Part shown: piece after piece, positions 1,768 to 25,203 of the stretch
Layout: each line of letters starts with the position of its first letter
Position numbering within the stretch: the first letter of the stretch is position 1
Assembly (NCBI GenBank): GCA_900769615.1
Contig: CAAGHH010000001.1
Location: forward strand, 6,061-70,060
Length of the DNA stretch: 64,000 nt
Direction: 5' to 3'
DNA from: Selenomonadales bacterium
GTDB taxonomy: Bacteria > Bacillota > Negativicutes > Selenomonadales > Selenomonadaceae
Translations under genes and position numbers: made by a program
The notes under the pieces: model-generated
What the model was told of the DNA's origin: nothing
The model's database searches: none
What the model saw: only the letters and a program-made list of their open reading frames with translations

Positions 1768-2715
1768 ATGTTTGAAAACAATGCTATTTGTAAATTATTA
1801 AATATAAAATATCCGATATTTCAAGGCGGTATGGCTTGGATTGGCACAGCGGAATTAGCTTCAGCTGTATCTAATGCCGGTGGTCTTGGTATTATCGGTG
1901 CTGGTCATATGCCCCCGGAAATTTTGCGCGCTGAGATTCAAAAATGCAAGGGCTGGACGGATAAACCATTTGGTGTAAATATCATGCTTATGAGCCCGTA
2001 TGTAAAAGAAGTTATGCAGGTTGTGCTCGATGAGAAAGTTCCAGTTGTTACTACTGGTGCTGGCAATCCGGGTGAATATGTGCCTGAATTAAAGGCAATT
2101 GGTTCCAAAGTTATACCAGTGGTAGCTTCAGTGGCACTAGCAAAAAGATTAGTAAGATGCGGTGCTGATGCAGTTATCGCTGAAGGTACTGAGTCCGGCG
2201 GTCACATTGGTGAGATTACGACGATGGCACTTTTGCCGCAGGTAGTTGATGCGGTTGACGTTCCGGTTATTGGTGCCGGCGGTATCGCTGATTCACGTGG
2301 TATGGCAGCAGCCTTTGCTTTGGGGGCTCAGGCAGTACAGATGGGATCCCGTTTTGTTGTAAGTGAGGAGTGCATTGCGCATCCAGATTATAAAAAAATG
2401 GTTCTCAGAGCAAAAGACCGTTCAACTGTTGTTACTGGACGCACGCTAGGTCATCCGGCGCGTGTTCTTGCGAATAAACTTACGCGTAAATATCAGGAAA
2501 TGGAAGCTGAAGGGGCTCCAGCTGAAGAACTTGAAAAGCTCGGTATAGGCAGTCTGCATAAGGCAACTCATGAAGGCGATGTGCAGAATGGCTCAGTAAT
2601 GATCGGTGAAATTTCTGGTATGCTGAAAGATATCAAGCCAGTAAAACAGATTATTGAGGATATTATTGCTGGCTTGCCGAAAGTAATTGATACGATTAAG
2701 CAGGATTGTAAATAA
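1768..2715 (+). CDS. fabK: Enoyl-ACP reductase II (FabK, NMO/TIM-barrel flavoprotein)
   Basis: N-terminus PIFQGGMAWI..GGLGIIGAG is typical of FabK/nitronate monooxygenase. The position between fabH and fabD matches FabK-type clusters. Confidence 0.85.
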   Translation: MFENNAICKLLNIKYPIFQGGMAWIGTAELASAVSNAGGLGIIGAGHMPPEILRAEIQKCKGWTDKPFGVNIMLMSPYVKEVMQVVLDEKVPVVTTGAGNPGEYVPELKAIGSKVIPVVASVALAKRLVRCGADAVIAEGTESGGHIGEITTMALLPQVVDAVDVPVIGAGGIADSRGMAAAFALGAQAVQMGSRFVVSEECIAHPDYKKMVLRAKDRSTVVTGRTLGHPARVLANKLTRKYQEMEAEGAPAEELEKLGIGSLHKATHEGDVQNGSVMIGEISGMLKDIKPVKQIIEDIIAGLPKVIDTIKQDCK

Positions 2716-2741
2716 AAACACCATAAAGGGGAGGAAGAACG

Positions 2742-3686
2742 TTGAATAAGCTTGCATTTGTATTTCCAGGTCAAGGTGCTCAGACGGTAGGTATGGGCAA
2801 GGATTTCTGCGAACAGTATGATGTTGCGAAAAAACTGTTTGCTCAGGCTGATGAAGCATTGGGCTACTCCATCAAAGATATGTGCTTTGAAGGTCCGGCT
2901 GAGGATCTTAAATTGACTGCTAACACGCAGCCAGCTATCTTGACGATGAGCGTTATCGCTAATGAAATCTTAAAAGAGCATGATATTTTGCCAGATGTTA
3001 CTGGTGGTCATAGCTTAGGTGAGTATTCAGCATTAGTGGCTGCTGATGTACTTGATTTTCAGGATGCTGTGCTTTTAGTACACAAACGTGGTCAGTATAT
3101 GCAGGAGGCTGTTCCAGTTGGTCAGGGCGGTATGGCTGCCATTATTGGGTTAGCTGATGAAGTTATCATAGATGCTTGTGTCAAGGCATCTAAAGAGGCT
3201 GGCGAGGTGCAGGCAGTAAACTTTAACTGCCCAGGTCAGACGGTTATCGCTGGTACGACTAAAGGCGTTGAAGCGGCCGTTGAGACTTTAAAAGCTGCTG
3301 GTGCTAAGAAAGCAGTAATTCTGCCAGTTTCGGCACCATTCCATTCAACTTTGATGAAGCCGGCAGCAGAAAAATTAGCAGCTGAACTTGATAGAGTTGA
3401 AATCCGTGATGCGAAAATACCAGTAGTTTCGAACTTTACGGGAAAATTAGAAACTAAAGCTGATGAAATCAAAGCTAATTTGGTAGCTCAGGCTGATAAT
3501 CCGGTTAAATGGATTGATTGCGTTAATACGATGAAAGAGTTCGGCGCAGATACTTTTGTTGAAGCTGGACCGGGCAAAACTCTTTGCGGTTTTAACCGTC
3601 GGATCGATCGTTCCTTAAAGAGCGTAAATGTAGAAAACCTTGAAACTTTGCAAAAAACGCTTGACTATTTCAAGGAGGTTCGTTAA
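2742..3686 (+). CDS. fabD: Malonyl-CoA:ACP transacylase
   Basis: Carries the [10 protein letters not shown] active-site serine motif and starts with TTG. It sits within the fab operon. Confidence 0.9.
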
Positions 3687-3687
3687 T

Positions 3688-4431
3688 ATGCTTTTAGGTG
3701 GAAAAGTCGCATTGGTTACAGGTGCTTCGCGTGGCATAGGTCGTGCTATTGCTTTGCGCTTGGCAGGTGAGGGCGCAAAAGTTGCTATCAACTATGCTGG
3801 CAATACGGCTAAAGCTGAAGCAGTTAAAGCTGAGATTGAGCAAAATGGCGGCGAGGCAATTCTGGTTCAGGCTGATGTGGCTGACAGCAGTGCTGTAGAA
3901 GCTATGGTAGCAAAAGTTACTGAGGCTTTTGGACAGATAGATATTTTGGTTAATAATGCTGGTATCACGCGCGATGGTTTGCTTATGCGCATGAAAGAAG
4001 AAGACTTTGATGCGGTAGTAAATACCAATCTCAAAGGTGTATTTCATTGCACTAAGACGGTTTCCAAGCTAATGATGAAAAAGCGCAGTGGTCGTATTAT
4101 TAACATGGCATCAGTCGTTGGCATAATGGGGAATGCTGGTCAGACCAATTATGCAGCAGCTAAAGCAGGCGTTATTGGTTTTTCAAAATCCGCAGCTAAA
4201 GAGCTGGCAGCCCGTGGTATTACTGTAAATGTGGTTGCGCCAGGATTCATTGATACGGATATGACAGCCGCTATGACTGATAAAGCCAAAGAACTTACGC
4301 TTACGGGGATTCCTATGAAAAAAATGGGAACACCTGAAGATGTAGCTAATGCGGTGCTGTTTTTAGCATCAGATTGTGCATCCTATATCACTGGCCAGAC
4401 CGTCAATGTAGACGGCGGCATGGTTATGTGA
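3688..4431 (+). CDS. fabG: 3-oxoacyl-ACP reductase
   Basis: SDR Rossmann motif [18 protein letters not shown] plus the NNAG block. The start is taken at the internal ATG 3688 rather than the ORF-track start 3640, which would overlap fabD. Confidence 0.9.
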
Positions 4432-4472
4432 TATAACTATATAGGACTACCAATTTAAGGAGGTGAAACTTC

Positions 4473-4703
4473 ATGTCGACTTTTGAAAAAGTAAGAGATA
4501 TCGTTGTTGAGCAGTTAGGTGTTGAAGCAGACGAGGTTGCACTCGATTCTACTTTCATCGATGATTTAGGAGCTGACTCCCTGGATATCGTTGAGCTTAT
4601 CATGGCTTTCGAAGAGGAATTCAATATTGAAATTCCGGATGAGGCTGCTGAAAAGATCAAGAGTGTTCAGGATGTAGTTACCTACATAGACCAGAACAAA
4701 TAA
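4473..4703 (+). CDS. acpP: Acyl carrier protein
   Basis: 76 aa with the LGADSLD phosphopantetheine attachment motif. An RBS AAGGAGG lies upstream. Confidence 0.95.
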
Positions 4704-4786
4704 GTTTGAGCGTCTTACCTATTTGAAAATCCCGTGAACTTGTTTCGCGGGATTTTCTCAAGGTAGGATTGATTGGAGGAGTAGCA

Positions 4787-5731
4787 TTGAAACTTCCAGA
4801 GCTGAAAATTGGCAACAAAGTCGCAAAGGTACCTATCCAGCAGGGAGGTATGGCGATTCGCTTGTCAACGGCCCGTCTGGCAGCAGCTGTTGCGAATGAG
4901 GGCGGTATCGGCCTCATAGCCGCATCAGGTATGAGCCACGACGAACTGCGTTATGAAATAAGGCTCGCACGTTCGCTTACGTCTGGTATCATTGGCATCA
5001 ACATCATGGTAGCAGCAGCAGACTTTGCTGGCGTTGTAAAAACGGCCATCGATGAGGGAATTGACCTCGTAGTCGCAGGTGCTGGTTTCTCCCGTGATAT
5101 GTTTGGACTTGGCAAGGAATCAGGGACGCCAATCGTTCCGATTGTTTCGTCCGTTAAATTAGCTAAAATTTCAGAGCGTCTTGGCGCAACAGCTATTGTG
5201 CTTGAAGGTAAGGAAGCTGGTGGACATTTAGGAACCGACATATCAGTACGGGATTTAATTTCTGATGTCAGTGCGGCTGTAAAAATACCAGTAATTGCAG
5301 CTGGTGGTATCCTTCATGGCCAGGACATCGTTGATTTGATAAAAATGGGCGCAGCTGGCGTCCAAATGGGGTCGCGTTTTGCTGCTTGTGAAGAATCTAA
5401 TGCAGCACCGGCACTTAAGGAATATTATCTGAAATCCAAACCGGAGGATATTGTGGTCATTCATAGTCCAGTTGGACTGCCTGGCCGGGCGGTGAGGACA
5501 CCGTTTTCGGCTAAGGTTATGGAAGGACCCGTTCCACCTAAGCAGTGTGATGCCTGCCTGAAGGCGTGCAAGCACAATTTCTGCATTATTCGGTCACTGA
5601 CTAGAGCGCAGCAGGGTGATGTAGAAACAGGTCTTGTGTTTACTGGTGAGTATATGCCACAGATTGACAAGATTCTAACCGTTCATGAAATTTTTGAGCA
5701 GCTTAAGGCTGAAGCTGAAGCTGCCGATTAA
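4787..5731 (+). CDS. Second FabK/nitronate-monooxygenase family flavoprotein; a paralog carrying a Cys-rich C-terminal insert
   Basis: The IQQGGMAIRL..GGIGLIAASG N-terminus parallels FabK. The start is probably TTG 4787 after GGAGGA, where the ORF track gives 4769. The CDACLKACKHNFC block has no counterpart in the first fabK. Confidence 0.7.
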   Translation: MKLPELKIGNKVAKVPIQQGGMAIRLSTARLAAAVANEGGIGLIAASGMSHDELRYEIRLARSLTSGIIGINIMVAAADFAGVVKTAIDEGIDLVVAGAGFSRDMFGLGKESGTPIVPIVSSVKLAKISERLGATAIVLEGKEAGGHLGTDISVRDLISDVSAAVKIPVIAAGGILHGQDIVDLIKMGAAGVQMGSRFAACEESNAAPALKEYYLKSKPEDIVVIHSPVGLPGRAVRTPFSAKVMEGPVPPKQCDACLKACKHNFCIIRSLTRAQQGDVETGLVFTGEYMPQIDKILTVHEIFEQLKAEAEAAD

Positions 5732-5783
5732 GCTGATTCGCAAGGATCGCTTTTAGACTAGAGTATGAGAGGAGTCATTCGTT

Positions 5784-7028
5784 TTGAGTAATCGCGTAGT
5801 AATTACCGGCGTTGGAGCCATTACTCCAATTGGTATCGGCAAAGATGAGTTTTGGAAAGGTTTGCTGGAAGGCCGTAATGGTATTGACAAAATAAGCCGC
5901 TTCGATGCTTCGGAATTCCATGCTCAGATTGCCGGCGAAGTCAAAGACTTTGACCCGACGGAGTACATAGATAAAAAAGAATCCAAGCGTATGGATCGTT
6001 ATACCCAGTTTGCAGTAGCTGCTGCTGGTATGGCCATAAAAGATGCAGGCTTGGATCTGGAAAAAGAAAACCTTGATCGCATTGGTACTTTTGTAGGTAC
6101 TGGTATTGGCGGTATTGAAACTATGCATGGGCAGTATGAAAAATACTTTGCTAAGGGACCGGGTCGTATCAGCCCGTTCTTTGTACCGATGATGATTGCG
6201 AATATGGCAGCAGGTCAGGTATCTATTGCTTATAAACTGCACGGTCCATCAAGCTGCGTAGTAACGGCTTGTGCTACTGGTTCTAACTGTATCGGTGACG
6301 CATTCCGGGTAATTCAGCGTGGTGAAGCTGATGTTATGGTTGCAGGTGGCACTGAGGCAGCTATTTCGCAAGCAGCTGTTGCTGGTTTTGGCGCAATGAA
6401 GGCATTGTGTATGGATCATAATGACGATCCGAAGCATGCTTCCCGTCCATTTGATAAGAATCGCAGTGGTTTTGTTATGGGTGAAGGTGCTGGTCTGGTA
6501 ATTCTGGAGAGCCTCGAACACGCTAAGGCTCGTGGTGCGCATATCTATGCTGAAATTGCAGGTTATGGCACGAATTCAGATGCTTACCATATCACTAGCC
6601 CAGCACCACATGGTACTTATCAGGCTAAATGCATGCAGATGGCAATAGATGATGCTGGTCTTAAAGCTACTGATATTGATTATGTAAATGCACATGGCAC
6701 GTCTACCCACATGAATGACCAGGGTGAAACCGAAGCCATTAAAGCTGTATGGGGTGAGGCTGCTAAAGAGGTTTCCGTATCGTCAATTAAGTCAATGACA
6801 GGTCATCTGTTAGGTGCAGCTGGCGGTGTTGAATGTATTGCTACTGCTTTGGCTGTTGAAAATGATATGCTGCCACCGACGATTAATTACGAGACTCAGG
6901 ACGAAGGTCTTGATCTTGATTATGTACCAAATAAAGCAAAAGCTAAGGTGGTTAGAGCGGCTATATCTAATTCCTTTGGCTTTGGTGGTCATAATGCCTG
7001 CCTGCTGCTTAAAAAATACGCAGAATAA
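5784..7028 (+). CDS. fabF: 3-oxoacyl-ACP synthase II
   Basis: 414 aa with the VVTACATGSNCIG KAS active-site Cys and HAHGTSTHMND and GHLLGAAG motifs. It starts with TTG. Confidence 0.9.
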   Translation: MSNRVVITGVGAITPIGIGKDEFWKGLLEGRNGIDKISRFDASEFHAQIAGEVKDFDPTEYIDKKESKRMDRYTQFAVAAAGMAIKDAGLDLEKENLDRIGTFVGTGIGGIETMHGQYEKYFAKGPGRISPFFVPMMIANMAAGQVSIAYKLHGPSSCVVTACATGSNCIGDAFRVIQRGEADVMVAGGTEAAISQAAVAGFGAMKALCMDHNDDPKHASRPFDKNRSGFVMGEGAGLVILESLEHAKARGAHIYAEIAGYGTNSDAYHITSPAPHGTYQAKCMQMAIDDAGLKATDIDYVNAHGTSTHMNDQGETEAIKAVWGEAAKEVSVSSIKSMTGHLLGAAGGVECIATALAVENDMLPPTINYETQDEGLDLDYVPNKAKAKVVRAAISNSFGFGGHNACLLLKKYAE

Positions 7029-7042
7029 TAGGGAGGCAGACG

Positions 7043-7765
7043 ATGGAGAAAATCCGATCGGAAGCGTGGCGTAGGGAGCTTATCCAGCTAGCTGAAAAAT
7101 TAGGTGTTAAGTTTAATGACTTATCATTATTGCAGCAGGCACTTACTCATACGTCTTATGCTAATGAATCAAAAGGAAACATCGTCCATAATGAACGTCT
7201 CGAATTTTTAGGAGATGCGGTGCTGGAGTTAGCCTCCAGCACTTATCTTTATCAGCACTTTCCTAATATGCCTGAAGGACAGCTGACTAAAATCAGAGCC
7301 AGTATAGTCTGTTCACAAACTTTAGCTAAATTGGCACGAGGGCTTCATTTGGGTGATTACCTGCTTTTGGGTCATGGCGAAGAAATGAGTGGTGGCAGAG
7401 ACCGTCAGACAAATCTTGAAGATACTTTTGAATCCATAATAGGTGCAATCTATTTGGATAAAGGTTGGGAAACAGCGTGTGAATATGTGATGCGTCAGCT
7501 TAAACCTGAATTTAAGCAGGTCGCTAAAGGGTTAATCCTAAAGGACTATAAGTCTATCTTGCAAGAAAAAGTTTATCAGCATGAAGGTCAGGATGTTGCT
7601 TATGAATTGCTGGAAACAACTGGTCCTGATCACAATAAAATGTTTACTTTTCAAGTAAGGATAACTGGTAAAGTGATGGGACAAGGCACTGGTCATAGCA
7701 AAAAAGAAGCTGAGCAGAAAGCAGCTTGTGAAGCACTTATGAGGCTTGGCCGTAGTTCAAAATAA
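7043..7765 (+). CDS. rnc: Ribonuclease III
   Basis: Carries the ERLEFLGDAVLEL RNase III signature and a C-terminal dsRBD-like region. Confidence 0.9.
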   Translation: MEKIRSEAWRRELIQLAEKLGVKFNDLSLLQQALTHTSYANESKGNIVHNERLEFLGDAVLELASSTYLYQHFPNMPEGQLTKIRASIVCSQTLAKLARGLHLGDYLLLGHGEEMSGGRDRQTNLEDTFESIIGAIYLDKGWETACEYVMRQLKPEFKQVAKGLILKDYKSILQEKVYQHEGQDVAYELLETTGPDHNKMFTFQVRITGKVMGQGTGHSKKEAEQKAACEALMRLGRSSK

Positions 7766-7780
7766 AAGGGGAGAGGCTTT

Positions 7781-8590
7781 ATGCGTAAGATGACAATTTT
7801 GGGGACAGGTTTTGCCATGGCAACAAAATGTTTTAATACCTGTTTTTATTTGGAATTGTCGGATGGCAGTCTTTTTTTGACTGATGCTGGTGGTGGTAAT
7901 GGCATTTTAAGGCAACTAGAGCTTACGGGCTTTGATTATCAAAAGTGTCATAATATGTTTGTAACCCATGGGCATACTGATCATGTTTTAGGTGTAATCT
8001 GGATTATGCGCAAGGTAGCCGATCTTATGAACAAAGGGAAATATCAAGGCAAATTCAATATCTATTGTCATGATATAGTAAAAGATATGCTGCTAAAAAT
8101 GACCAAGATGACGCTTAAAAAGAAAGACTTTGCTAGAGTTGGCAGTGATATATTGATTCATGAACTAAAAGATGGTGAGTCAGTTGAGCTGGAGCAGTTC
8201 AAATTAACAGCTTTTGATATCCTTTCGACTAAAGCTAAACAGTTTGGTTACAGTTTAAGCTTTGCTGATGGGATGAAATTTACCTGCTTAGGTGATGAAC
8301 CATATAATGAACATGATAAAGTTTATGCTGAAAATGCTGATTGGCTGCTAGCGGAGGCTTTTTGTCAATATAAAGACCGCGATGTCTTTAAACCTTATGA
8401 AAAGAATCATAGTACGGTCAAGGAAGCTAGTGAGCTTGCTGAAGCTTTAGCAGCAAAAAACTTAGTTTTATATCATACTGAGGATAAGCACTTAGCTACG
8501 CGTAAAAAAGAATATTCAGCTGAGGCCGCTAAATATTATCATGGCAACATTTATGTGCCGGATGATTTAGATGTAATTGAGCTTGGCTAA
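7781..8590 (+). CDS. MBL-fold metallo-hydrolase
   Basis: Contains the THGHTDH metal-binding motif and a beta-lactamase-fold N-terminus. Confidence 0.7.
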   Translation: MRKMTILGTGFAMATKCFNTCFYLELSDGSLFLTDAGGGNGILRQLELTGFDYQKCHNMFVTHGHTDHVLGVIWIMRKVADLMNKGKYQGKFNIYCHDIVKDMLLKMTKMTLKKKDFARVGSDILIHELKDGESVELEQFKLTAFDILSTKAKQFGYSLSFADGMKFTCLGDEPYNEHDKVYAENADWLLAEAFCQYKDRDVFKPYEKNHSTVKEASELAEALAAKNLVLYHTEDKHLATRKKEYSAEAAKYYHGNIYVPDDLDVIELG

Positions 8591-8591
8591 A

Positions 8592-8640
8592 AAAATACCA
8601 TTCAATAATTGCGGAAACACGCATTATTGAATGGTATTTT
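8592..8640. terminator. Bidirectional rho-independent terminator hairpin
   Basis: A perfect 15-bp stem (ataccattcaataat / attattgaatggtat) flanked by A and T runs, located between convergent genes. Confidence 0.7.
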
Positions 8641-9081
8641 TTATATAAACATTTTTTCAAGCAAATGATTAAAATTAGTTATAATGTGCGACAATTGCTG
8701 GCGTTCACTTGCCGTCAGGTATTCACTTTGCTGTCGGAATTTTTCTTTGACAACATCGTCCTGCTTAGCTAAAACAGCTTGACCTTTAACTGTCAGCGAT
8801 ACTAAAAAACGACGACGGTCATTATAATCAATAGTTTTTTGTACTAAATCGTTTTTTACTAATTTATCAATTACAATCGTCATTTGCTGTTTAGATATAT
8901 TAAGCGTATGACTTATATCACTTATTGATGCAATCTTTTCAGCTCGCAATGCGCAAAGAACACCAAATTGATTCAAAGGAACAGGAATCTGAGTCTGACG
9001 ATAAAAATTGTTGTGAATCATCATTAATGTTTCGAGGAAACCTGCTGAAGCATCAGCAGTGATACTTTTTTCCATGGACAA
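8641..9081 (-). CDS. MarR-family transcriptional regulator, divergent from the RND pump
   Basis: 146 aa with a winged-HTH region (ISDISHTLNISKQQMTIVIDKLVKNDLV..DRRR). Confidence 0.75.
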   Translation of the reverse strand: MSMEKSITADASAGFLETLMMIHNNFYRQTQIPVPLNQFGVLCALRAEKIASISDISHTLNISKQQMTIVIDKLVKNDLVQKTIDYNDRRRFLVSLTVKGQAVLAKQDDVVKEKFRQQSEYLTASERQQLSHIITNFNHLLEKMFI

Positions 9082-17052: not shown

Positions 17053-17195
17053 TCCACACAATCATAAGATACCAGTATTTATGCTGGTTACAAGCAAATT
17101 TGCTTAGTGATTGGCAACAAAATGGCAACATTTTACGATTATTCAAGAGATAAAAATTTTATTTCATAACGTATATAAAGAAACCTTACTGATTT

Positions 17196-17747
17196 TCAGA
17201 AGTAAAAAACTGAATATCGGTAAGGTTTTTCTTTTTTAGTCAATTCTTTTACGAGGTAATCACTCAGTTCCTGAGATGGTACCTTGGCACGTTTCTGGTA
17301 AGTATCCAGTTCCGGATACTTATATCTCCATTCATCATATTCTTCCTTGCTGATTTCACCGTTTTCCAGTTTGTCAGCTTGTTCCATCCATGCACGAAAC
17401 ATTTCATCGACAGATGAGCCGGGAGTAGATATGGAAGAGTCAAGGCAGAGATGAGGTTGTCCATCTACATTTTTTACCTTCAGACCATACATATCTTCCA
17501 GTGCAAATAGTGTATGCATCAGACCTATGTGAGTATCAATATCTGGAACTGTTAAGGCATGAGTATTGATATCAAAGATCTGAGACATTTGTTTTACAAG
17601 ATCAATCTTAGGAACTCTGGCTTCAGATTCATACTGAGCCATGTGGACATCTGATGTTTTTCCTTTGAATCACAGTTGTTCTCCCAGTTGCTTTTGTGTC
17701 ATGCCTTTGCGGTTGCGAAAAAATTTGATACGTTGTCCGATTGCCAT
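17196..17747 (-). pseudogene. XRE-family HTH regulator interrupted by an in-frame TGA
   Basis: An HTH segment (MAIGQRIKFFRNRKGMTQKQLGEQL) runs from 17747 and continues in the same frame, through the TGA at 17670-17672, into the 148-aa track ORF (..FKGKTSDVHMAQYESEARVPKIDL..). Confidence 0.6.
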
Positions 17748-17843
17748 TCTTGTCGAAATCACTTGACTTAAATAAATATGTTTAGTGTTATGCAAATGTA
17801 GCAACCTAAACAAATTGCGTTAAGAAGAAAGGGGAGATGCGAT

Positions 17844-19050
17844 GTGACGAACAAGACCAATTATCACATTCATTTGATATTTGCAGAACGTAAGCTATTG
17901 GATGAACCAATCATTAAGATTGCCAGCAGAAATATGTTTTACAATAAAAATGGAAAACATGTCTGAACCAAGAAAGAGATATTGGGAGAAGATGGCGAGA
18001 TACGATAAGGTTGCCAAATTTTGAAAAAAGTCGAAGTCTATGAAAAGAAGCTGTTTACTGCGAAAGATGAATGTTTCAAGAATAATTCATTTCTGGATGA
18101 GGTAAAGCATTCTTATACAGATTTAATCAATATTTATGTGCAGGACGAGAAATAGAAACTACAGGTATTTGAACGTGGCAGTGTTTATCTTCCAACAAAA
18201 AAAATCGGAAAAAATAATCCGAAGGCACAAGAAATAGAAGCGGATAACCAAAAACGCCGGGAATGGAACAGAGCTGTTGATATGGCATTGATTAGTGGAG
18301 TGCCAGAACCGAAGATAATGGAAGTGAAGCGGAAAGAAATCATGGAGCCGATCAGGGAATCAATTGCCCGGCGTGGAAACAGACCACGATTATTTTCCAG
18401 AGTTGTAACAGTGGCGGTTGAGGCATTGGAGTTTTTGATAGCAAGTGTGCTGTTTAAAAAAACCAGGAAAGTGCCAAAACAGACAGAGCGAACGGAAACT
18501 GAACACCCAGAGCATGTTGCTGAAAATAGTATGGCATGTATGGCAACAGTCAAAGCAAAAAAAGAAGAAAAGTCAGAACAGGAACAACCTAAAATGACGA
18601 GGCTTGCATCAAAGTATCCGAAACTATTTAAAGTGAATAAAGAACTGGAAGATCAAAACGGTGCAATTCAACAGAAACAAAAACAGCTTTCAGCAAAGAA
18701 GAAAGAATTGTCATAGGTCAAGGGATGGTTTAAAGGAAGAAAGAAAAAAGAATTGCAGAAAGAAATTGATGAACTGAAAAGCCAGATTAGATATATGAAA
18801 GATTACCTTCCAAGGATTGTATAGAAAATCGGCTATAGAAGTGTACAGGATTTTTTAAAGGATTTTAAGGCTTCCCAAACTGAGTATAGCCAGTATCGAA
18901 CTGCAATAGAAAAATGGAAGAAAGAAACAGGTAAAGAGCCAGTAGCACATGGTATTAGGGCAAAACTGGCAGAAAAGAAACAAGAAATACAGAATGAACA
19001 GAAAAATAAACAGCATACCCGTCAGAATAAAGACCGGGTAGCAAGATAGG
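17844..19050 (+). pseudogene. Fragmented conjugative-element gene(s), possibly relaxase or Mob-like
   Basis: The first piece starts at GTG 17844 (TNKTNYHIHLIFAERKLLDEP.., with a His-hydrophobic-His motif) and stops after 40 codons. Its continuation lies in other frames (..KKEILGEDGEIR / DKVAKF / KVEVYEKKLFTAKDECFKNNSFLDEVKH..). A K/E-rich coiled-coil tail is split over at least three frames. Confidence 0.35.
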
Positions 19051-19059
19051 AGGACAATC

Positions 19060-19437
19060 ATGGAGAAACACATTATGGGAGTAAATGGAATTAGCTATAC
19101 TTTAGGAGAGGACGGTCTGTATTACCCAGACCTGTACCTCCCGGAAGAGATAGAGTATCCGATTGGAAAGTATGGAATGTTGAGAAAAACTTACTTGAAA
19201 GAACATCGGAAAGGATTATATCTGGAACTGGTACTTGCCGGGAAGTTAAATGAGCATTTGCATCAAATTGATGAGGAGTGTAATCAGATGATGGACAGAT
19301 TGGTGGAACAGATGAAAGAAAGGCAAGGAGTGACAGAAGAACTGAAGATGCAGGATCAGATGTCATGGATTGGGGAAATGAATAATATCCGGGCTTGTGC
19401 GGAGGAGATTGTATTGAAGAAAATCGTATATAGATAA
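19060..19437 (+). CDS. tnpV: TnpV-like transposon-encoded protein
   Basis: 125 aa with an N-terminus (ISYTLGEDGLYYPDLYLPEE) typical of the TnpV family from Clostridial transposons. An RBS AGGAGG lies upstream. Confidence 0.6.
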   Translation: MEKHIMGVNGISYTLGEDGLYYPDLYLPEEIEYPIGKYGMLRKTYLKEHRKGLYLELVLAGKLNEHLHQIDEECNQMMDRLVEQMKERQGVTEELKMQDQMSWIGEMNNIRACAEEIVLKKIVYR

Positions 19438-19440
19438 ATG

Positions 19441-19475
19441 GAAAAGGTGGTTATAGTTGCCACCTTTTTTAACTG
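19441..19475 (+). terminator. Rho-independent terminator after tnpV
   Basis: Hairpin aaggtgg..ccacctt followed by tttttt. Confidence 0.6.
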
Positions 19476-19532
19476 TAGGTGGAGCATGTTTGTGAAAATA
19501 GGATGGAGCAATTCTCTCAATTATGATAAAAT

Positions 19533-20345
19533 TTGAATAGAACTATGTCTGCGTTGGATATGATTCTTGAGCTTATAAAGAATGTGAAGATTGGAATTAT
19601 GAGAAATATGGAAAAGAAAAAAATGACGCAAGAAGATATTATGAAATTATTAGACTCTTGCTATGAAAAATGTTTAAATGGAATACCGATGGTCAGTCCC
19701 GGTGTTGAAGATATGGCAAATGATTATTTGTCAAAGCACGAGACAAAGGAAAAAGCTTGTAGGGATATGCTGAAAAATCAAATTGCCAAATGTACAACAT
19801 CAGGAGTTGTAACAGGACTTGGTGGCTTTATAACAATGCCAGTTGCGATACCTGCGAATATCGAAAGTGTAATTTATGTGCAAATGAGGATGATAGCCTG
19901 CACAGCATACATGGCAGATTATGATTTGAATAGTGATCAGACGTAAACTTTTGTATATGCTTGTCTTGCAGGAGTGTCAGTGAATAGTTTGTTGAAACAG
20001 GCAGGAATCAAATTTGGCGTAAAATTTGCAAATGGTGTTATAAAAAAGATACCAGGGAAGGTCCTGACAAAGATTAATCAGAAGGTTGGCTTCAGATTTA
20101 TTACGAAATTTGGTTCAAAAGGAATCGTAAATCTTGGAAAGATGTTACCAGGAGTAGGTACTATTGTAGGTGGCGGATTGGATTTGGTGGAAACAAAGGT
20201 TATCGCAGATCGCGCATATAAATGGTTTATGACAGGAGATTTTTCTGTAAAAGGTGAGAGTAACGACGATGTTATAGATATAGATGATAATGATTATAAT
20301 ACAACGGGAATAAAAAAACAGAACGTATGTTTGAAAGAACGTTGA
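19533..20345 (+). pseudogene. EcsC-family protein split by an in-frame TAA at 19944-19946
   Basis: Track ORFs 19533-19946 and 19974-20345 are in the same frame. The first ends in a Gly-rich block (GLGGFITMPVAIPANIES..QMRMIACTAYM). The second carries an EcsC C-terminal-like region (GVGTIVGGGLDLVETKVIADRAYKWF). Together they total about 260 aa, the usual EcsC length. Confidence 0.55.
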
Positions 20346-20403
20346 AAAAGGGTCTGTGCTATAGCATAATAACAGAAATAGAAGGCTTGTAGGTAGGTGG
20401 AAT

Positions 20404-21891
20404 ATGCTAGAAAAAATTATAGAACTTACAAACGAATATATAGAGAATATGCCAAAAAAAGAACGTAAAAAATACGGACAGTTTTTTACCAGTATGGAAA
20501 CTGCCCGTTTTATGGCGGGATTATATAAGTTAGATGAGAAAACAGGCAGAGTAAGTGTGCTTGATGCAGGGGCTGGTTCAGGTATATTATCATGTGCTTT
20601 TATTGAGCGAATGGAAACAACAGATTCTATTCAGGAGATTGAGCTTACCTGCTATGAGAACGATGAAAATGTATTGCCATTGTTGAAACGTAATCTGGAA
20701 TATTGTAAAGAAGAGACAAAGAAAAAACTTACAGTTAATATCGTTGAAGATAATTATATTTTGAGCCAGTATCTGGATTTTAATCATATGTTGGGAGGAA
20801 ATGCAGAGCCTAAGAAATATGATTTTGTGATTGGAAATCCGCCGTATATGAAAATTCCGAAAGATGCGCCAGAAGCAACAGCGATGCCAGAGGTATGTTA
20901 TGGTGCACCAAATTTATATTTCATTTTTGCGTCTATGGGATTATTTAATTTATGTGAAAGTGGAGAGCTGGTTTACATCATTCCGAGGTCATGGACATCA
21001 GGGGCGTATTTTAAACGTTTCCGGGAATATTTTCTGACAGAAGGGAAATTGGAACATATTCACCTTTTTGTCAGCAGAAATAAGGTTTTCGACAAAGAAA
21101 GTGTGTTACAGGAAACAATTATTATTAAAGTAAGGAAGACGAGCGAAAAGCCAGAAACCGTTACGATTACATCATCGAAATCAAATAGTGATTTTGGAGA
21201 GCTGACATCATTGACAGTTCCGTATGATCTGGTTGTTGCGGGATCAGACTACTATGTTTATCTTGTAACAGATAAAAATGAAGTGGAAGTATTAAAGAAA
21301 TTGCATAAATTTGATAAGACACTTCCAGCAATTGGTGTAAAAATGAAAACGGGATTGACCGTAGACTTCCGTAATCGTGAGATTTTGAGGGATGAAGCGG
21401 AAGAAGGGGCGATACCTTTATTTTATTCGCAACATATAAAGCAAGGAAAGGTAGAATTTCCAATCCAGAAAGAACATGAATATGTGGTGACAGAACAAAA
21501 GGGATTAATGCAAGAGAACAAAAATTATCTATTTGTAAAGCGATTTACGGCAAAGGAAGAACCTCGAAGATTACAGTGTGGCGTGTACCTAGCAAAAAGA
21601 TTTACACAATATAAAAAGATAAGTACGCAGAACAAAATTAATTTTGTAGATGGTGTATTAACGGAAATGTCGGAATGTCTGGTGTATGGGTTGTATGTAT
21701 TGTTTAATTCAACACTTTATGACGAATATTATCGCATTTTGAATGGATCTACGCAGGTTAATTCAACAGAGATCAATGCAATGCCGGTGCCAGATTTAGA
21801 GGATATTCAGGAAATGGGAAGAAAAGTGCTTAAAAGTAAGGATTATTCAGAGGAAAATTGCAATTTGATATTGGAGGGATACTGTGGATAA
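20404..21891 (+). CDS. Type II N6-adenine DNA methyltransferase (gamma class, Eco57I/PstI-like)
   Basis: Carries GQFFTS (motif X), VLDAGAGSGILS (motif I, AdoMet) and FVIGNPPYMK (motif IV) in gamma order. At 495 aa it matches M.PstI/M.BsuBI in size. Confidence 0.85.
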   Translation: MLEKIIELTNEYIENMPKKERKKYGQFFTSMETARFMAGLYKLDEKTGRVSVLDAGAGSGILSCAFIERMETTDSIQEIELTCYENDENVLPLLKRNLEYCKEETKKKLTVNIVEDNYILSQYLDFNHMLGGNAEPKKYDFVIGNPPYMKIPKDAPEATAMPEVCYGAPNLYFIFASMGLFNLCESGELVYIIPRSWTSGAYFKRFREYFLTEGKLEHIHLFVSRNKVFDKESVLQETIIIKVRKTSEKPETVTITSSKSNSDFGELTSLTVPYDLVVAGSDYYVYLVTDKNEVEVLKKLHKFDKTLPAIGVKMKTGLTVDFRNREILRDEAEEGAIPLFYSQHIKQGKVEFPIQKEHEYVVTEQKGLMQENKNYLFVKRFTAKEEPRRLQCGVYLAKRFTQYKKISTQNKINFVDGVLTEMSECLVYGLYVLFNSTLYDEYYRILNGSTQVNSTEINAMPVPDLEDIQEMGRKVLKSKDYSEENCNLILEGYCG

Positions 21892-22804
21892 GAAAATAGA
21901 AGAAACAAGAGAATTTCTGCAAACAATAGGCATGCCCAAAGCACAGCAAGCGGATATATGCTGCTATGTGATACTGGCTATGGCAGGAATAAAGCCGGAT
22001 ATGTCATGGAGTGAAGCAACAAATGAATGGATTCGTATTCATGATATTATTCAGTTTGTTAATACATTCTATGGCATGAGTTATGCGGAAAATAGTAGAG
22101 AAACATTTAGAAAGCAGGCTTTGCATAGATTTCGCACCGCAGCTTTGGTAGAGGATAATGGAAAAGCAACAAACAGCCCGAACTATAGATACCGCCTTAC
22201 GGAAGAAACGCTGAAAATATTGAAAACATTGCAATCTGTAGATTGGCAGAAATCGTTGAATCGTTTCCTTATGTATCATGATAAGTTGATTGATATTTAT
22301 GCTTCTAAAAAGAAGATGACGATGATGCCAGTGAAGATTAATGGGGCGGATTTTAAATTTTCAGCAGGGAAACACAATGAACTGCAAAAAGCAATTATTG
22401 AGGAATTTGCACCGAGATTTGCACCCAATTCGGAATGTCTGTATGTAGGCGATACCACAGAGAAAGATTTGGTAAAGAATGTTGATAAGCTAATGGAGTT
22501 GGGGTTTGAAATTACTCTACATGATAAGATGCCGGATGTTGTTTTGTATAGAGCAGACAAGAACTGGATTTATTTTGTGGAATCGGTCACTTCTGTAGGA
22601 CCGATGGACCCGAAACGGATTTTTGAGATTACAGAAATGACAAAGGGTGTTACGGCAGGTAAAATTTTTGTTACTGCTTTTCTGGATTTCAAGACGTATA
22701 AGAAATTTTCGGAAACATTGGCATGGGAAACGGAAGTATGGATTGCTGAAATGCCGGAGCATATGATACACTTAAATGGAAATAAATTTATGGGACCGAG
22801 ATAG
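21884..22804 (+). CDS. Putative cognate restriction endonuclease (BsuBI/PstI-like size and context)
   Basis: 306 aa with a GTG start that overlaps the MTase 3' end by 8 nt. The assignment rests on position and size, with no motif-level match. Confidence 0.5.
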   Translation: MDKKIEETREFLQTIGMPKAQQADICCYVILAMAGIKPDMSWSEATNEWIRIHDIIQFVNTFYGMSYAENSRETFRKQALHRFRTAALVEDNGKATNSPNYRYRLTEETLKILKTLQSVDWQKSLNRFLMYHDKLIDIYASKKKMTMMPVKINGADFKFSAGKHNELQKAIIEEFAPRFAPNSECLYVGDTTEKDLVKNVDKLMELGFEITLHDKMPDVVLYRADKNWIYFVESVTSVGPMDPKRIFEITEMTKGVTAGKIFVTAFLDFKTYKKFSETLAWETEVWIAEMPEHMIHLNGNKFMGPR

Positions 22805-22818
22805 AAAGGGGAATTGAA

Positions 22819-23244
22819 ATGGCAAAACCTAAGATTTTTGTATCTTTTGATTTTGAAAATGACAGAAATTATAAGTACACTTTGAATATATGGAACGCAA
22901 ATTCGAGTTTTGAATTTACATGCAATGATAAGTCGCCGAGTGAAATTCAAAGTTGGAATATACCAACGGTTAAGAGCGTTCTGTCAAGAAAAATCAATGA
23001 AGCAACACATGTTGTCGTAATTGTGGGAAAGGAAGCGAACAAAGTACATAAAGACAGGGCGCTTATTGGTTATCGGAACTGGCAGAATTTCGAGATTGCC
23101 AAGGCCAAAGAATTAAGGAAACATATAATTGCAGTACAATTAAACTCTTCATATGAGTACCCAGAGGAACTTAAAAATTGTGGTGCAACACGAGTTTACA
23201 GTTTCAACCATTATGATATTGTGAGGGCAGTAAGAGGGTGGTAA
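22819..23244 (+). CDS. TIR-like (DUF1863/ThsB-like) small protein, paralog 1
   Basis: 141 aa with N-terminal KIFVSFDFENDR, the beta-strand VVVIVGK and the conserved block IGYRNWQNFEIAKA (Glu92). The flavodoxin-like pattern is typical of bacterial TIR-like domains. Confidence 0.55.
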   Translation: MAKPKIFVSFDFENDRNYKYTLNIWNANSSFEFTCNDKSPSEIQSWNIPTVKSVLSRKINEATHVVVIVGKEANKVHKDRALIGYRNWQNFEIAKAKELRKHIIAVQLNSSYEYPEELKNCGATRVYSFNHYDIVRAVRGW

Positions 23245-23245
23245 T

Positions 23246-23905
23246 ATGGATGCGCTTGAAATGCTGTATGACCATTATAAAGAAACTTTTAGCTTGAGCA
23301 AAGAAGCGCAAGTAAGAAGAAATAAAAGTTTTATTGTCCTTTGTATATTAGAAGCATTTTCATTTCTGCTTTTAATTAGACCGGAAAAAGCATTTGAACT
23401 TATTCTCGAAGGAATACATAAAGAGTTGGACATGACTTTACAGTTGAGCAATACGATTATTCAAACATTGCTTTGGTTATTGATTGTATACGTTATGATA
23501 CGGTATATTCAAGATATGTTATATGTTGAACGTCAATACGCATATTTGGATAGTCTTGAAAAAGAAATATCTAATTTAGGTTCGGTAAATATATTTGCAC
23601 GTGAAGGAGCGAATTATCAAAAAGATTATCCTATGGTGTTAAATTTTATTGATTTGTTTTATAAAATGTTGATGCCGATATTTTTTGCATTGATTAATAT
23701 GGTGCGAATTTATGAGGAATGGATTTTATCGGATAAAATTACTATAGCAATTATTTGTGATACGATCCTATTTTTGTCGATATTTATTATTGATTGGTTT
23801 TATTTTTTTGAGATACATGCTAAGATTACAAAATTTTGCAAAAGACATATACCATTTATAGACACGATTGCAAAAAGATTAAGAAAAATACTCAAGGAGG
23901 TTTAA
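23246..23905 (+). CDS. Four-TM membrane protein with no recognizable soluble domain; candidate effector
   Basis: Hydrophobic helices at about aa 29-45, 71-88, 140-156 and 168-190. The start lies 1 nt after the TIR1 stop, and the stop lies 2 nt before the TIR2 start. Confidence 0.6.
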   Translation: MDALEMLYDHYKETFSLSKEAQVRRNKSFIVLCILEAFSFLLLIRPEKAFELILEGIHKELDMTLQLSNTIIQTLLWLLIVYVMIRYIQDMLYVERQYAYLDSLEKEISNLGSVNIFAREGANYQKDYPMVLNFIDLFYKMLMPIFFALINMVRIYEEWILSDKITIAIICDTILFLSIFIIDWFYFFEIHAKITKFCKRHIPFIDTIAKRLRKILKEV

Positions 23906-23907
23906 CA

Positions 23908-24339
23908 ATGGCAAAGAAAAAGGTTTGTTGTTCGTTTGACTACGAACATGATCGACATTATTATAATTTGTTGGAGGCATGGAATAAAAACAAAGACATA
24001 GATTTTTCAATCAAGGATTGTACGCCGAGTGAAATACAAAGCGAGTCGGTTGCGACCATTAAACAAGTTTTAAGCACAAAGATAGGGGATGCTAATTATA
24101 TGATTGCCATAATTGGAAAACATTCTGATGATACGCATCCAGATAGTGCGGAAATTGGATATAAGAATTGGCAAGCATATGAGATAGCTAAAAATCATGA
24201 AAAAGGAAATGGGTTAGTAGTAGTCAAATTGGATAATTCATATAGTGCGCCAGTTGAAGCATACGGTATTGGTGCAAAATGGGTGTATTCATTTAATCTG
24301 GAAGATATTTTATCGGCTTTAAATGAATTAGCAAAGTAA
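23908..24339 (+). CDS. TIR-like (DUF1863/ThsB-like) small protein, paralog 2
   Basis: Starts at ATG 23908 after AAGGAGG. It carries KVCCSFDYEHDR, MIAIIGK and IGYKNWQAYEIAKN, paralogous to 22819-23244. Confidence 0.55.
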   Translation: MAKKKVCCSFDYEHDRHYYNLLEAWNKNKDIDFSIKDCTPSEIQSESVATIKQVLSTKIGDANYMIAIIGKHSDDTHPDSAEIGYKNWQAYEIAKNHEKGNGLVVVKLDNSYSAPVEAYGIGAKWVYSFNLEDILSALNELAK

Positions 24340-24474
24340 ATTTTTTATTGGCGTGGCAACATTTCGGCAACAGAAAATCAGTAAGCCAGAATAATTGATG
24401 TAATTGAAGTAAAAAGCGGCGTGTATTTGCATATAAATTAAACAAATATAGTTAATAACAACAAAGGACACGTC

Positions 24475-24486
24475 GAGTTTGAGTAG
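24475..24486 (+). repeat. Right copy of the direct repeat (GAGTTTGAGTAG); displaced guaA 3' remnant and candidate attR core
   Basis: Read in frame it gives ..HVEFE*, which mimics the guaA C-terminus IEFE*. It is followed at once by a terminator. Confidence 0.45.
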
Positions 24487-24496
24487 AAGCTAAAAG

Positions 24497-24538
24497 TCTC
24501 TGAATCAGCTAAACAAGCTGATTCAGAGGCTTTTTTTG
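24497..24538 (+). terminator. Rho-independent terminator, probably the original guaA terminator
   Basis: A 12-bp stem (tctctgaatcagc / gctgattcagagg) with a T7 run. Confidence 0.7.
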
Positions 24539-24648
24539 CTTTGTTACTAATTGCAGTTATTTAGTTTCATATTATGATATCCAGATAAAATTTTTTGAAT
24601 ATATTGATTTGATATGAGGTAGTAACCAAAGCTGTCAGAAGAGCTTTC

Positions 24649-24676
24649 TTGACAAATCGAAAAATCACCTTATAAT
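24649..24676 (+). promoter_or_regulatory. Sigma-A-like promoter TTGACA-16-TATAAT for the marR-hlyD-ABC2 operon
   Basis: TTGACA lies at 24649-24654 and TATAAT at 24671-24676. The -10 element lies inside the left arm of the palindrome. Confidence 0.55.
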
Positions 24677-24716
24677 AGATAGTTAGAAAACTAACTATCT
24701 ATTATAAGGTGATTTT
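24661..24716. promoter_or_regulatory. Perfect 56-bp palindrome of two 26-bp arms and a 4-bp spacer; putative MarR operator and/or RBS-sequestering hairpin
   Basis: The sequence aaaatcaccttataatagatagttag aaaa ctaactatctattataaggtgatttt ends 1 nt before the marR ATG 24718 and contains the RBS aaggtg. Confidence 0.6.
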
Positions 24717-24717
24717 T

Positions 24718-25203
24718 ATGAAAAAAGAAATGATTCCAACTAGAGAAGAATTAGAACGGCATAAAGAGATCATTCCGGAAATTAATCCATCGGCAGTTAT
24801 TGCTATGCTGGGTATTAAAGCTGTAGAAGAAGAAATACAGCATTCGATTCTTGATGTTTTGTTGAAACAATATCATTTATCAGAAGGAAAATTCTGCGCG
24901 TTGATTGTGCTGCATCAGCATCGTCATGATGGAGTAGCACCTTCAATATTAGCAGAAAAAGTAGGTGTCAGTCGTGCTACGATTAGTAATATGCTGCAAC
25001 GAATGGAACGAGAAGAATTGATCGTCATAAAGCCTAATGAAAAGGATGAGCGTGGTAAGATTGCCATACTTTCACCAAAAGGAAGGTCATTTATGGAAAA
25101 AATTTTGCCACCGCATTATCTTCGCGTTACCAAGCTTATGGCGAAGCTGACCGAAGAAGAACAGAAGGAATTGATTCGTATTCTAAATAAAATGGCCATA
25201 TAA
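24718..25203 (+). CDS. MarR-family transcriptional regulator
   Basis: Winged-HTH region (LAEKVGVSRATISNMLQRMEREELI..DERGK). The start is taken at ATG 24718, where the track gives 24709. Confidence 0.75.
   Translation: MKKEMIPTREELERHKEIIPEINPSAVIAMLGIKAVEEEIQHSILDVLLKQYHLSEGKFCALIVLHQHRHDGVAPSILAEKVGVSRATISNMLQRMEREELIVIKPNEKDERGKIAILSPKGRSFMEKILPPHYLRVTKLMAKLTEEEQKELIRILNKMAI

Follow-up and report, generated by a model that had tools for sequence, protein, structure and literature searches.

This study concerns three tightly packed genes at positions 22819 to 24339 of a 64,000-nucleotide stretch of DNA from a Selenomonadales bacterium (assembly GCA_900769615.1, contig CAAGHH010000001.1), a stretch that we call the window throughout. 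The two outer genes encode small TIR proteins of the ThsB family and the middle one encodes a four-pass transmembrane (TM) protein, here named 4TM; together they form a candidate Thoeris-type defence operon. An earlier note, made from the letters of this DNA alone, had described three co-directional genes spaced by 1–2 nt and lying 14 nt past a type II methyltransferase (MTase) and restriction endonuclease (REase) pair, and its coordinates proved exact. The operon consists of the following features:

22819..23244, + strand: thsB-like gene 1 (T1 clade), encoding a TIR protein of 141 aa with catalytic Glu92
23246..23905, + strand: 4TM gene, candidate Thoeris effector, encoding a predicted N-in/C-in four-pass membrane protein of 219 aa
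23908..24339, + strand: thsB-like gene 2 (T2 clade), encoding a TIR protein of 143 aa from its ATG, with catalytic Glu92
24492..24534, + strand: terminator-like hairpin closing the operon, a 19-bp stem followed by a T run

The stop-to-start spacers measure 1 nt (thsB1/4TM) and 2 nt (4TM/thsB2), and a purine-rich Shine-Dalgarno sequence stands ahead of every start codon of the trio. The gap of 14 nt between the REase stop (22804) and the thsB1 ATG contains the ribosome-binding site GAAAGGGGAA. The automatic open reading frame (ORF) call for thsB2 reaches further, to a TTG at 23836; we count the gene from the ATG at 23908 because an AAGGAGG Shine-Dalgarno sequence (23894-23900) lies 7 nt upstream of it. 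No terminator-like site was found on the + strand between the REase stop and the end of thsB2, and a promoter-like site matching at 10/12 positions lies within the 3′ end of the REase gene (22637-22665). A scan of the whole 64-kb window with Rfam and tRNA models returned no matches.

The outer proteins had been read as TIR-like (DUF1863, ThsB-like) paralogs of about 140 aa with a conserved Glu at position 92, and the comparisons bear this out. Their scores against ThsB_TIR (PF08937), 38.7 bits for ThsB1 and 40.9 bits for ThsB2, exceed the curated Pfam cut-off of 21.2. The PADLOC check that the earlier note proposed likewise gave ThsB matches for both outer proteins and none for the 4TM protein: several ThsB models are matched by the two, with our ThsB1 reaching the ThsB1 model PDLC00429 at E = 4e-11 and our ThsB2 reaching the ThsB1 model at E = 3e-13. 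Aligned with each other over 138 residues, the two proteins show 46% identity (E = 8e-45). Both contain Glu92, a residue kept by 33 of 33 aligned sequences; it shares a column with the Glu of the RYEI motif of Bacillus cereus MSX-D12 ThsB, and the alignment identifies this column as that of the Glu in the WxxxEI motif of ThsBs of types I, IV, VII and X. A profile built from 18 members of the TIR family recovers the solved bacterial TIRs 8v6t, 8fz9, 9b7d and 6lhy. In our fold-search table 8v6t is labelled EcThsB2 and 8fz9 B. cereus TIR, and 8v6t is the closest solved relative by sequence profile; we take this entry to originate from a 2024 Sci Adv paper on macro-domain Thoeris systems.

An AlphaFold2 (AF2) model of ThsB1 shows alternating strands and helices at a mean confidence (pLDDT) of 69; it was built on a shallow alignment of two sequences, and with a confidence this moderate its finer detail should be read with caution. 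Its best Foldseek matches in the PDB are B. cereus TIR 8fz9, EcThsB 8wcf, EcThsB2 8v6t and ThsB(-Tad3) 9b7d, which is the TIR/ThsB fold that had been predicted; SARM1 and plant TIRs and nucleoside 2-deoxyribosyltransferases rank lower. On the strength of these comparisons, the outer genes encode ThsB-family TIR proteins in which the catalytic Glu is intact. Just N-terminal to the catalytic helix they carry a 10-residue insertion (KxHKDxxxIGY; residues 74-83 of ThsB1, window 23038-23067, with an equivalent in ThsB2), which is the lowest-confidence segment of the AF2 model. All 4TM-associated ThsBs that we aligned keep the insertion, and none of the reference TIRs of types I, IV, VII and X has it. 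The insertion could affect the specificity of the product or of the trigger.

The middle protein shows Kyte-Doolittle peaks at residues 28-46, 67-88, 130-155 and 165-188, and its AF2 model is all-helical (pLDDT 73). Across 45 diverse homologs, Lys and Arg are enriched in the N-terminus, in the loop 89–129 and in the C-terminal tail, a positive-inside pattern. The family to which it belongs is large: we counted 275 close homologs in a 90%-clustered collection, and a profile search (E ≤ 0.001) yielded 730 representatives at 50% identity, typically of 190-220 aa. Even so, it went without annotation in these searches because no Pfam or PADLOC model covers it. The window protein has no match in Pfam, NCBIfam, PADLOC (2023) or the PDB sequences. 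With regard to SLATT, the window protein gave no Pfam match at E ≤ 1 and the 45 homologs none at E ≤ 0.1; the sole SLATT-related match is a chance-level one of a single family member to the PADLOC model RTasSLATT (E = 0.094). Pfam and PADLOC models for DUF2270 (PF10028, ThsF), DUF6650 (ThsG), Macro-TM (ThsC) and the type X ion-channel effector found nothing in the window protein or the 45 homologs. In these scans the homologs returned scattered chance-level matches only.

The earlier note had credited the 4TM protein with no recognizable soluble or ligand-binding domain. No known domain was indeed found, but the conserved residues lie almost wholly on predicted cytoplasmic segments. Conservation reaches 80% or more at 24 positions; 17 of them fall in such segments, and these positions are rich in Tyr, Arg, His and Glu (H10, Y11, R25, Y87, Q89, E95, Y98, Y100, E105, R119, E120, Y124, Y128 and P129 are among the conserved residues), and the extracytoplasmic loops are the least conserved parts of the protein. 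Three cytoplasmic groups can be distinguished: the YDHYK motif (residues 8-12) with R25; Q89, E95, R96, Y98, Y100 and E105 on the helix leaving TM2; and the R119-E120...Y124...Y128-P129 loop. We infer that this charged and aromatic surface could hold a nucleotide.

Recurrence of the ThsB–4TM pairing and its catalogue entry

We examined the neighbourhoods of 4TM relatives in two sets of loci, numbered here with the prefix L. In the first, with one genome per species, a 4TM relative was present at 29 loci, three of which are end fragments; in all 26 informative species genomes the 4TM gene either has a same-strand gene of the TIR superfamily as its immediate neighbour or is fused to one. ThsB may stand upstream or downstream of 4TM, flank it on both sides (L012) or be fused to it, and in other cases the partners are large TIR_2-Sel1/TPR proteins (L014, L015, L018 and L037). 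In the second set, 80 metagenomic loci with more distant relatives, ThsB abuts 4TM in 73, divided into 42 ThsB-4TM pairs, 19 trios and 12 4TM-ThsB pairs; metagenome contigs are not independent samples, so these counts are descriptive and not statistics. The other seven loci include two with TIR_2-Sel1/TPR partners, one with DUF4062 and a STAND NTPase, one with a CAP12-PCTIR TIR and one with a KAP NTPase.

In Rummeliibacillus suwonensis G20 (L035:5935-7083, NZ_VCBL01000001.1), a single protein of 382 aa joins an N-terminal 4TM to a ThsB_TIR domain at residues 249-353, and going by its domain content this fusion is a 'Rosetta stone' link between the two families. That one 4TM partner serves several unrelated TIR architectures fits coupling via a diffusible product. 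Other 4TM loci also lie in defence or mobile settings, beside an AAA_21 gene, integrases, ParAB elements, STAND NTPases or the KAP NTPase. The combination of TIR and 4TM was found above all in anaerobes of the gut (Lachnospiraceae, Oscillospiraceae, Selenomonadaceae, Megasphaera), with a further occurrence in a Bacteroides metagenome-assembled genome.

The earlier note had proposed to look for recurrence of the trio. The linkage of ThsB and 4TM does recur in many genomes, but the trio is not its basic form: two-gene arrangements, in either order, are commoner. The basic unit is the ThsB-4TM pair, and the trio is a frequent elaboration of it. Among close relatives, the upstream ThsB is T1-like in 28/28 cases and the downstream ThsB T2-like in 28/28. 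A recent tandem duplication as the origin of the trio was rejected: with only 46% identity between the paralogs and one constant side of 4TM for either clade, the trio joins two old, position-fixed ThsB lineages.

Several individual loci deserve description. The large TIR_2 partners (L014:3720-6014; L015:3530-5896; L018 at 2432-3913, 3942-5912 and 6842-8800; L100:1359-2528; L112:2292-4940) carry Sel1/TPR repeats in four cases and DUF6273 in two of the three of L018, where one 4TM gene is surrounded by three TIR_2 genes. DUF4062 together with a STAND/AAA_16 NTPase is found at L094:1190-4356, the CAP12-PCTIR TIR protein lies at L110:3227-3979, and the KAP-family NTPase (L103:1-3212) stands beside a fragment, without a family match, that we read as nucleoside-deoxyribosyltransferase-like. 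On a ParA/ParB/Mob_Pre element (L007:7207-11065, also L008-L010), a 4TM-ThsB pair is directly followed by radical-SAM/B12-binding, prenyltransferase-like, HD-domain and 131-aa uncharacterised genes, which may be another defence or natural-product cassette. In one lineage (L005:659-6660 and L006; Logan ERR13998879 / ERR13998819), the 4TM gene, 65% identical, lies in an operon behind the genes of a 581-aa Peptidase_U32 protein and of four proteins without a Pfam match. This is the only context that we saw without a recognisable TIR; a search for hidden TIR domains in the L005/L006 proteins found none. By eye, one 154-aa protein there resembles a nucleoside-deoxyribosyltransferase or TIR-like protein, a likeness that is unproven.

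Decayed copies were also seen. The 4TM gene is frameshifted in L016 and in Eubacterium plexicaudatum ASF492 (L020), and in Blautia fusiformis (L023) the ThsB1 and 4TM genes are truncated and the REase gene is nearly gone, with an MTase 97% identical. These copies suggest that such genes are often lost.

The arrangement had been called undescribed by the earlier note, a claim that did not survive comparison with the literature. Yirmiya et al. (bioRxiv 10.64898/2025.12.03.692087, a preprint of December 2025) scanned defence islands for TIR signalling systems and propose 29 putative Thoeris types; seven new ones, types V to XI, were verified. TIR cluster 2727267812 was chosen by the authors for its enrichment near known defence genes (defence score above 0.4). 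In their Table S1, about 34 rows give '4TM' as the putative effector, all with this TIR cluster, and a TIR-4TM-TIR layout is included as a predicted type; the configuration also appears in Figure 1C, and the entry has no type number, signal or effector analysis.

The listed proteins can be related directly to ours. The window TIRs are 83-90% identical to five TIRs listed in '4TM' rows. Three pairs of such rows have TIR genes two gene numbers apart, that is, in a TIR-x-TIR layout, and sequences were compared for two of the pairs: ga0169192_10055220 and ga0245165_10037629 are 90% and 88% identical to the window ThsB1, and their companions ga0169192_10055222 and ga0245165_10037627 are 86% and 83% identical to ThsB2. 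The row IMG 2515955466 is 100% identical to the ThsB that abuts a 4TM homolog in Blautia producta DSM 2950 (L026), so the '4TM' of the catalogue is the family described here. Judged by these identities, the window trio is another member of the predicted Thoeris configuration of TIR and '4TM'. A search of the paper library for a named type ('type XII') or a characterisation of TIR-4TM turned up nothing beyond the catalogue preprint.

The carrier island and its restriction–modification pair

The trio lies at one end of an island; the features of the island and the gene that flanks it are:

17053..24540, no strand assigned: decayed integrative mobilizable element (IME) of low GC, between guaA and a MarR-family gene, with restriction–modification (RM) and Thoeris-like cargo
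17196-17642, − strand: possible helix-turn-helix (HTH) regulator gene, a window ORF without a Pfam match
18282-18716: apparent C-terminal remnant of a relaxase, an ORF of 144 aa
19060-19437: TnpV
19533-19946 and 19974-20345: two adjacent small ORFs, the first with a sub-threshold EcsC match
20404-21891, + strand: type II MTase, Eco57I/N6_Mtase-type (PADLOC MTase_II)
21884-22804, + strand: type II REase, 306 aa, BsuBI_PstI_RE with an N-terminal HTH domain (PADLOC REase_II)
24709-25203: MarR-family gene, followed by HlyD-like and ABC-2 permease genes

The description of this region as a decayed mobile island is confirmed by an intact relative (L041), in which the order is integrase, NikA-like, AAA_25, DUF5348, MobA/L relaxase, TnpV, two small ORFs, MTase, REase, ThsB, 4TM, ThsB and then the chromosomal MarR gene. 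Relative to L041, the window copy misses about 4.4 kb between 17753 and 17853; with this segment went the genes for the integrase, the NikA-like protein, AAA_25 and DUF5348, as well as the 5′ portion of the relaxase gene. The island is poorer in GC (31-38%) than its flanks (41-44%), and poorest over the trio. The element is located directly after guaA, the 3′ end of which we take to be a known integration site for such elements in Firmicutes. At the end corresponding to the possible HTH-regulator gene, a gene of L040 has weak HTH_19/HTH_3 matches, and the two small ORFs of the window may be one split gene. Beyond the island, a perfect sigma-70-type promoter (TTGACA, 16 nt, TATAAT; 24649-24676) stands directly upstream of the MarR-family gene and is overlapped by a perfect 20-bp palindrome (24665-24712); the combination looks like an autoregulated MarR operator for an efflux operon.

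The REase gene overlaps the MTase gene, and the earlier note had regarded the trio as fused onto this RM operon. The distribution of the pair speaks otherwise: of the loci tested among L001-L045, near-identical islands (L011, L012, L023, L040-L045) are the only ones in which RM genes stand with the trio, and all the others lack them. The idea that RM pair and trio form one system was rejected on this distribution. The RM pair is better regarded as a defence module of its own that shares the island, and possibly a transcript, with the trio.

Proposed mechanism and its alternatives

The earlier note had taken the trio for a Thoeris-like module of TIR proteins and a membrane effector within a defence island, and this remains the best reading, well supported by the gene context (26/26 and 73/80). 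From homology and context together, we assign a probability of roughly 0.7 to the trio being a Thoeris-type operon in which a phage-triggered ThsB signal would act on the cytoplasmic face of 4TM to breach the membrane, with abortive infection as the outcome. Small membrane effectors are used by the verified types II, V, VI, VII and X, according to the preprint (10.64898/2025.12.03.692087).

In the mechanism that we propose, each ThsB would sense phage infection and convert NAD+ into a signal derived from ADP-ribose (ADPR). The leading guess for this signal, and a weak one, would be canonical cyclic ADP-ribose (cADPR), because the authors of the catalogue cluster these TIRs with the cADPR-producing type VII TIR of Bacillus licheniformis. 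The signal would bind the cytoplasmic face of 4TM, formed by the N-terminal helix (YDHYK, R25), the RYxQ...ERQYxY...LE helix after TM2 and the REG..Y...YP loop; on binding, 4TM would oligomerise or open and the membrane would be breached, so that the cell would be killed or arrested before phage progeny are released. The two ThsB paralogs, members of old clades at fixed positions, would most likely widen the range of phages recognised and feed one shared effector, and the adjacent RM pair would act as an independent first line of defence on the same mobilizable island.

Several points weigh against this interpretation. No '4TM' row of the preprint's Table S1 is marked for verification and none appears in Table S2, and its authors warn that the TIR of unverified types might be an NAD+-depleting effector and not a signal maker. 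In one of their clusters, type I and type IV TIRs, which use different signals, stand together, so cluster membership weakly predicts the signal. In our sequence-model scans the 4TM protein has no detectable similarity to the SLATT, DUF2270, DUF6650, Macro-TM or ion-channel effectors, and the structural matches of its model are generic helical hairpins only; its ligand binding and oligomerisation are assigned purely by inference. Moreover, type I and type VII ThsBs lack the pre-helix insertion of the 4TM-associated TIRs, and the Peptidase_U32 lineage (L005/L006) has a 4TM gene with no recognisable TIR nearby.

A more ambitious proposal, which we hold to be possible but doubtful, is that the 4TM family constitutes a receptor-pore class of its own, responding to a TIR product that is neither one of the known cADPR isomers nor histidine-ADP-ribose (His-ADPR). 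Its pairing with TIR_2-TPR, DUF4062-STAND and CAP12-type TIR proteins would then make 4TM a universal executioner at the membrane, on which several TIR sensor architectures of gut Firmicutes rely. The product could be a new ADPR derivative, perhaps tied to the 10-residue TIR insertion, and the two ThsB clades might each give a different phage specificity, or even different signals.

The roles of the partners might instead be reversed: the TIRs would be toxic NADase effectors and 4TM a sensor, anchor or regulator, with no diffusible signal between them. 4TM could, for example, detect a phage-induced perturbation of the membrane and release or activate the TIRs. The warning of the catalogue authors points in this direction, some 4TM homologs adjoin a CAP12-PCTIR TIR, whose family is named for CBASS/Pycsar NADase effectors, the 4TM-ThsB fusions would suit direct protein-protein control, and the ThsBs, at only about 140 aa, have no separate sensor domain. 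We nevertheless regard such a reversal as unlikely. The TIRs belong to the ThsB family and, in the catalogue, share a cluster with the verified signal-producing type VII TIR, and types II, V, VII and X have small TM proteins as their verified effectors; specific protein contacts would poorly explain the pairing of 4TM with four TIR families, and it is the cytoplasmic segments of 4TM that are most conserved, the extracytoplasmic loops least.

A role outside defence, as a toxin-antitoxin-like addiction module of the mobile element or a housekeeping pair for membrane or nucleotide metabolism, is improbable. The genes have no known phenotype and are carried on mobile elements, and the TIR fold is shared with nucleoside 2-deoxyribosyltransferases, which are present among the fold matches. 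However, the outer proteins match ThsB models specifically, beyond the generic fold, their neighbours are RM genes here and an AAA_21 gene, STAND NTPases and a KAP NTPase elsewhere, and the cluster was selected for defence-gene enrichment by the catalogue authors.

Finally, the trio as an accessory of the RM system, in a five-gene composite whose TIR and TM genes depend on or regulate restriction, is very improbable: although only 14 nt without a terminator-like site separate REase from thsB1 and the five genes are linked in every near-identical copy, the other loci tested (those of Megasphaera, Bacteroides, Selenomonas, Blautia producta and Oscillospiraceae among them) have no RM genes and quite different neighbours (an AAA_21 gene, ParAB, radical-SAM genes), and the promoter-like site inside the REase 3′ end also argues against it.

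If the Thoeris interpretation is validated, the TIR and 4TM configuration would add a Thoeris type with a domain-less four-helix membrane effector, in gut anaerobes that are poorly covered by the E. coli and B. subtilis test systems. The conserved cytoplasmic motifs of 4TM provide concrete mutagenesis targets for the putative ligand site, and its pairing with four TIR-type families is a natural test of whether one effector reads signals from diverse TIR sensors.

Comparison with known Thoeris types

Nothing structural separates the window trio from the catalogued TIR and '4TM' systems, with which it shares TIR lineages and layout; what is peculiar to the window lineage is its RM linkage and its setting on an IME.

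Type VII, in which ThsB is paired with the SLATT effector ThsH and canonical cADPR is the signal, has TIRs that share the authors' cluster 2727267812 with those of the window. The window TIRs are 30-35% identical to Bacillus type VII TIRs, with a common FxSYDYxND N-terminal strand and WxxxEIxKAKE catalytic helix, and the type VII effector is likewise a small membrane protein, with cytoplasmic polar pockets. On the other hand, the window effector is not SLATT by sequence models (the SLATT architecture has two TM segments, 4TM four), and the window TIRs carry the 10-residue insertion.

Types V (ThsB with the three-TM DUF2270 protein ThsF, signalling by 3'cADPR) and X (ion-channel effector) share with the trio the logic of a TIR and a minimal multi-pass membrane protein without an enzymatic domain. 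The predicted assembly of their effectors is a ring or channel whose pockets between protomers carry positive charge. The window 4TM, in contrast, has no PF10028 or ion-channel Pfam match, and its helix number and motifs differ.

Type II (ThsB with Macro-TM, signalling by His-ADPR) also relies on a membrane-disrupting effector, and the closest solved relative of the window TIRs by sequence profile, EcThsB2, is the one that we take to come from work on macro-domain systems; 4TM, however, has no Macro domain and leaves the PADLOC ThsA models unmatched. As regards gene order, several TIR paralogs per effector are known from other multi-ThsB loci. Type III has four TIRs, and type IX of Paenibacillus macerans has the same TIR-effector-TIR order as the trio (TIRs 2639430606 and 2639430608, effector 2639430607; Table S2), but the effector families of these multi-ThsB loci are TIR-SLOG and SLOG, where the window has 4TM.

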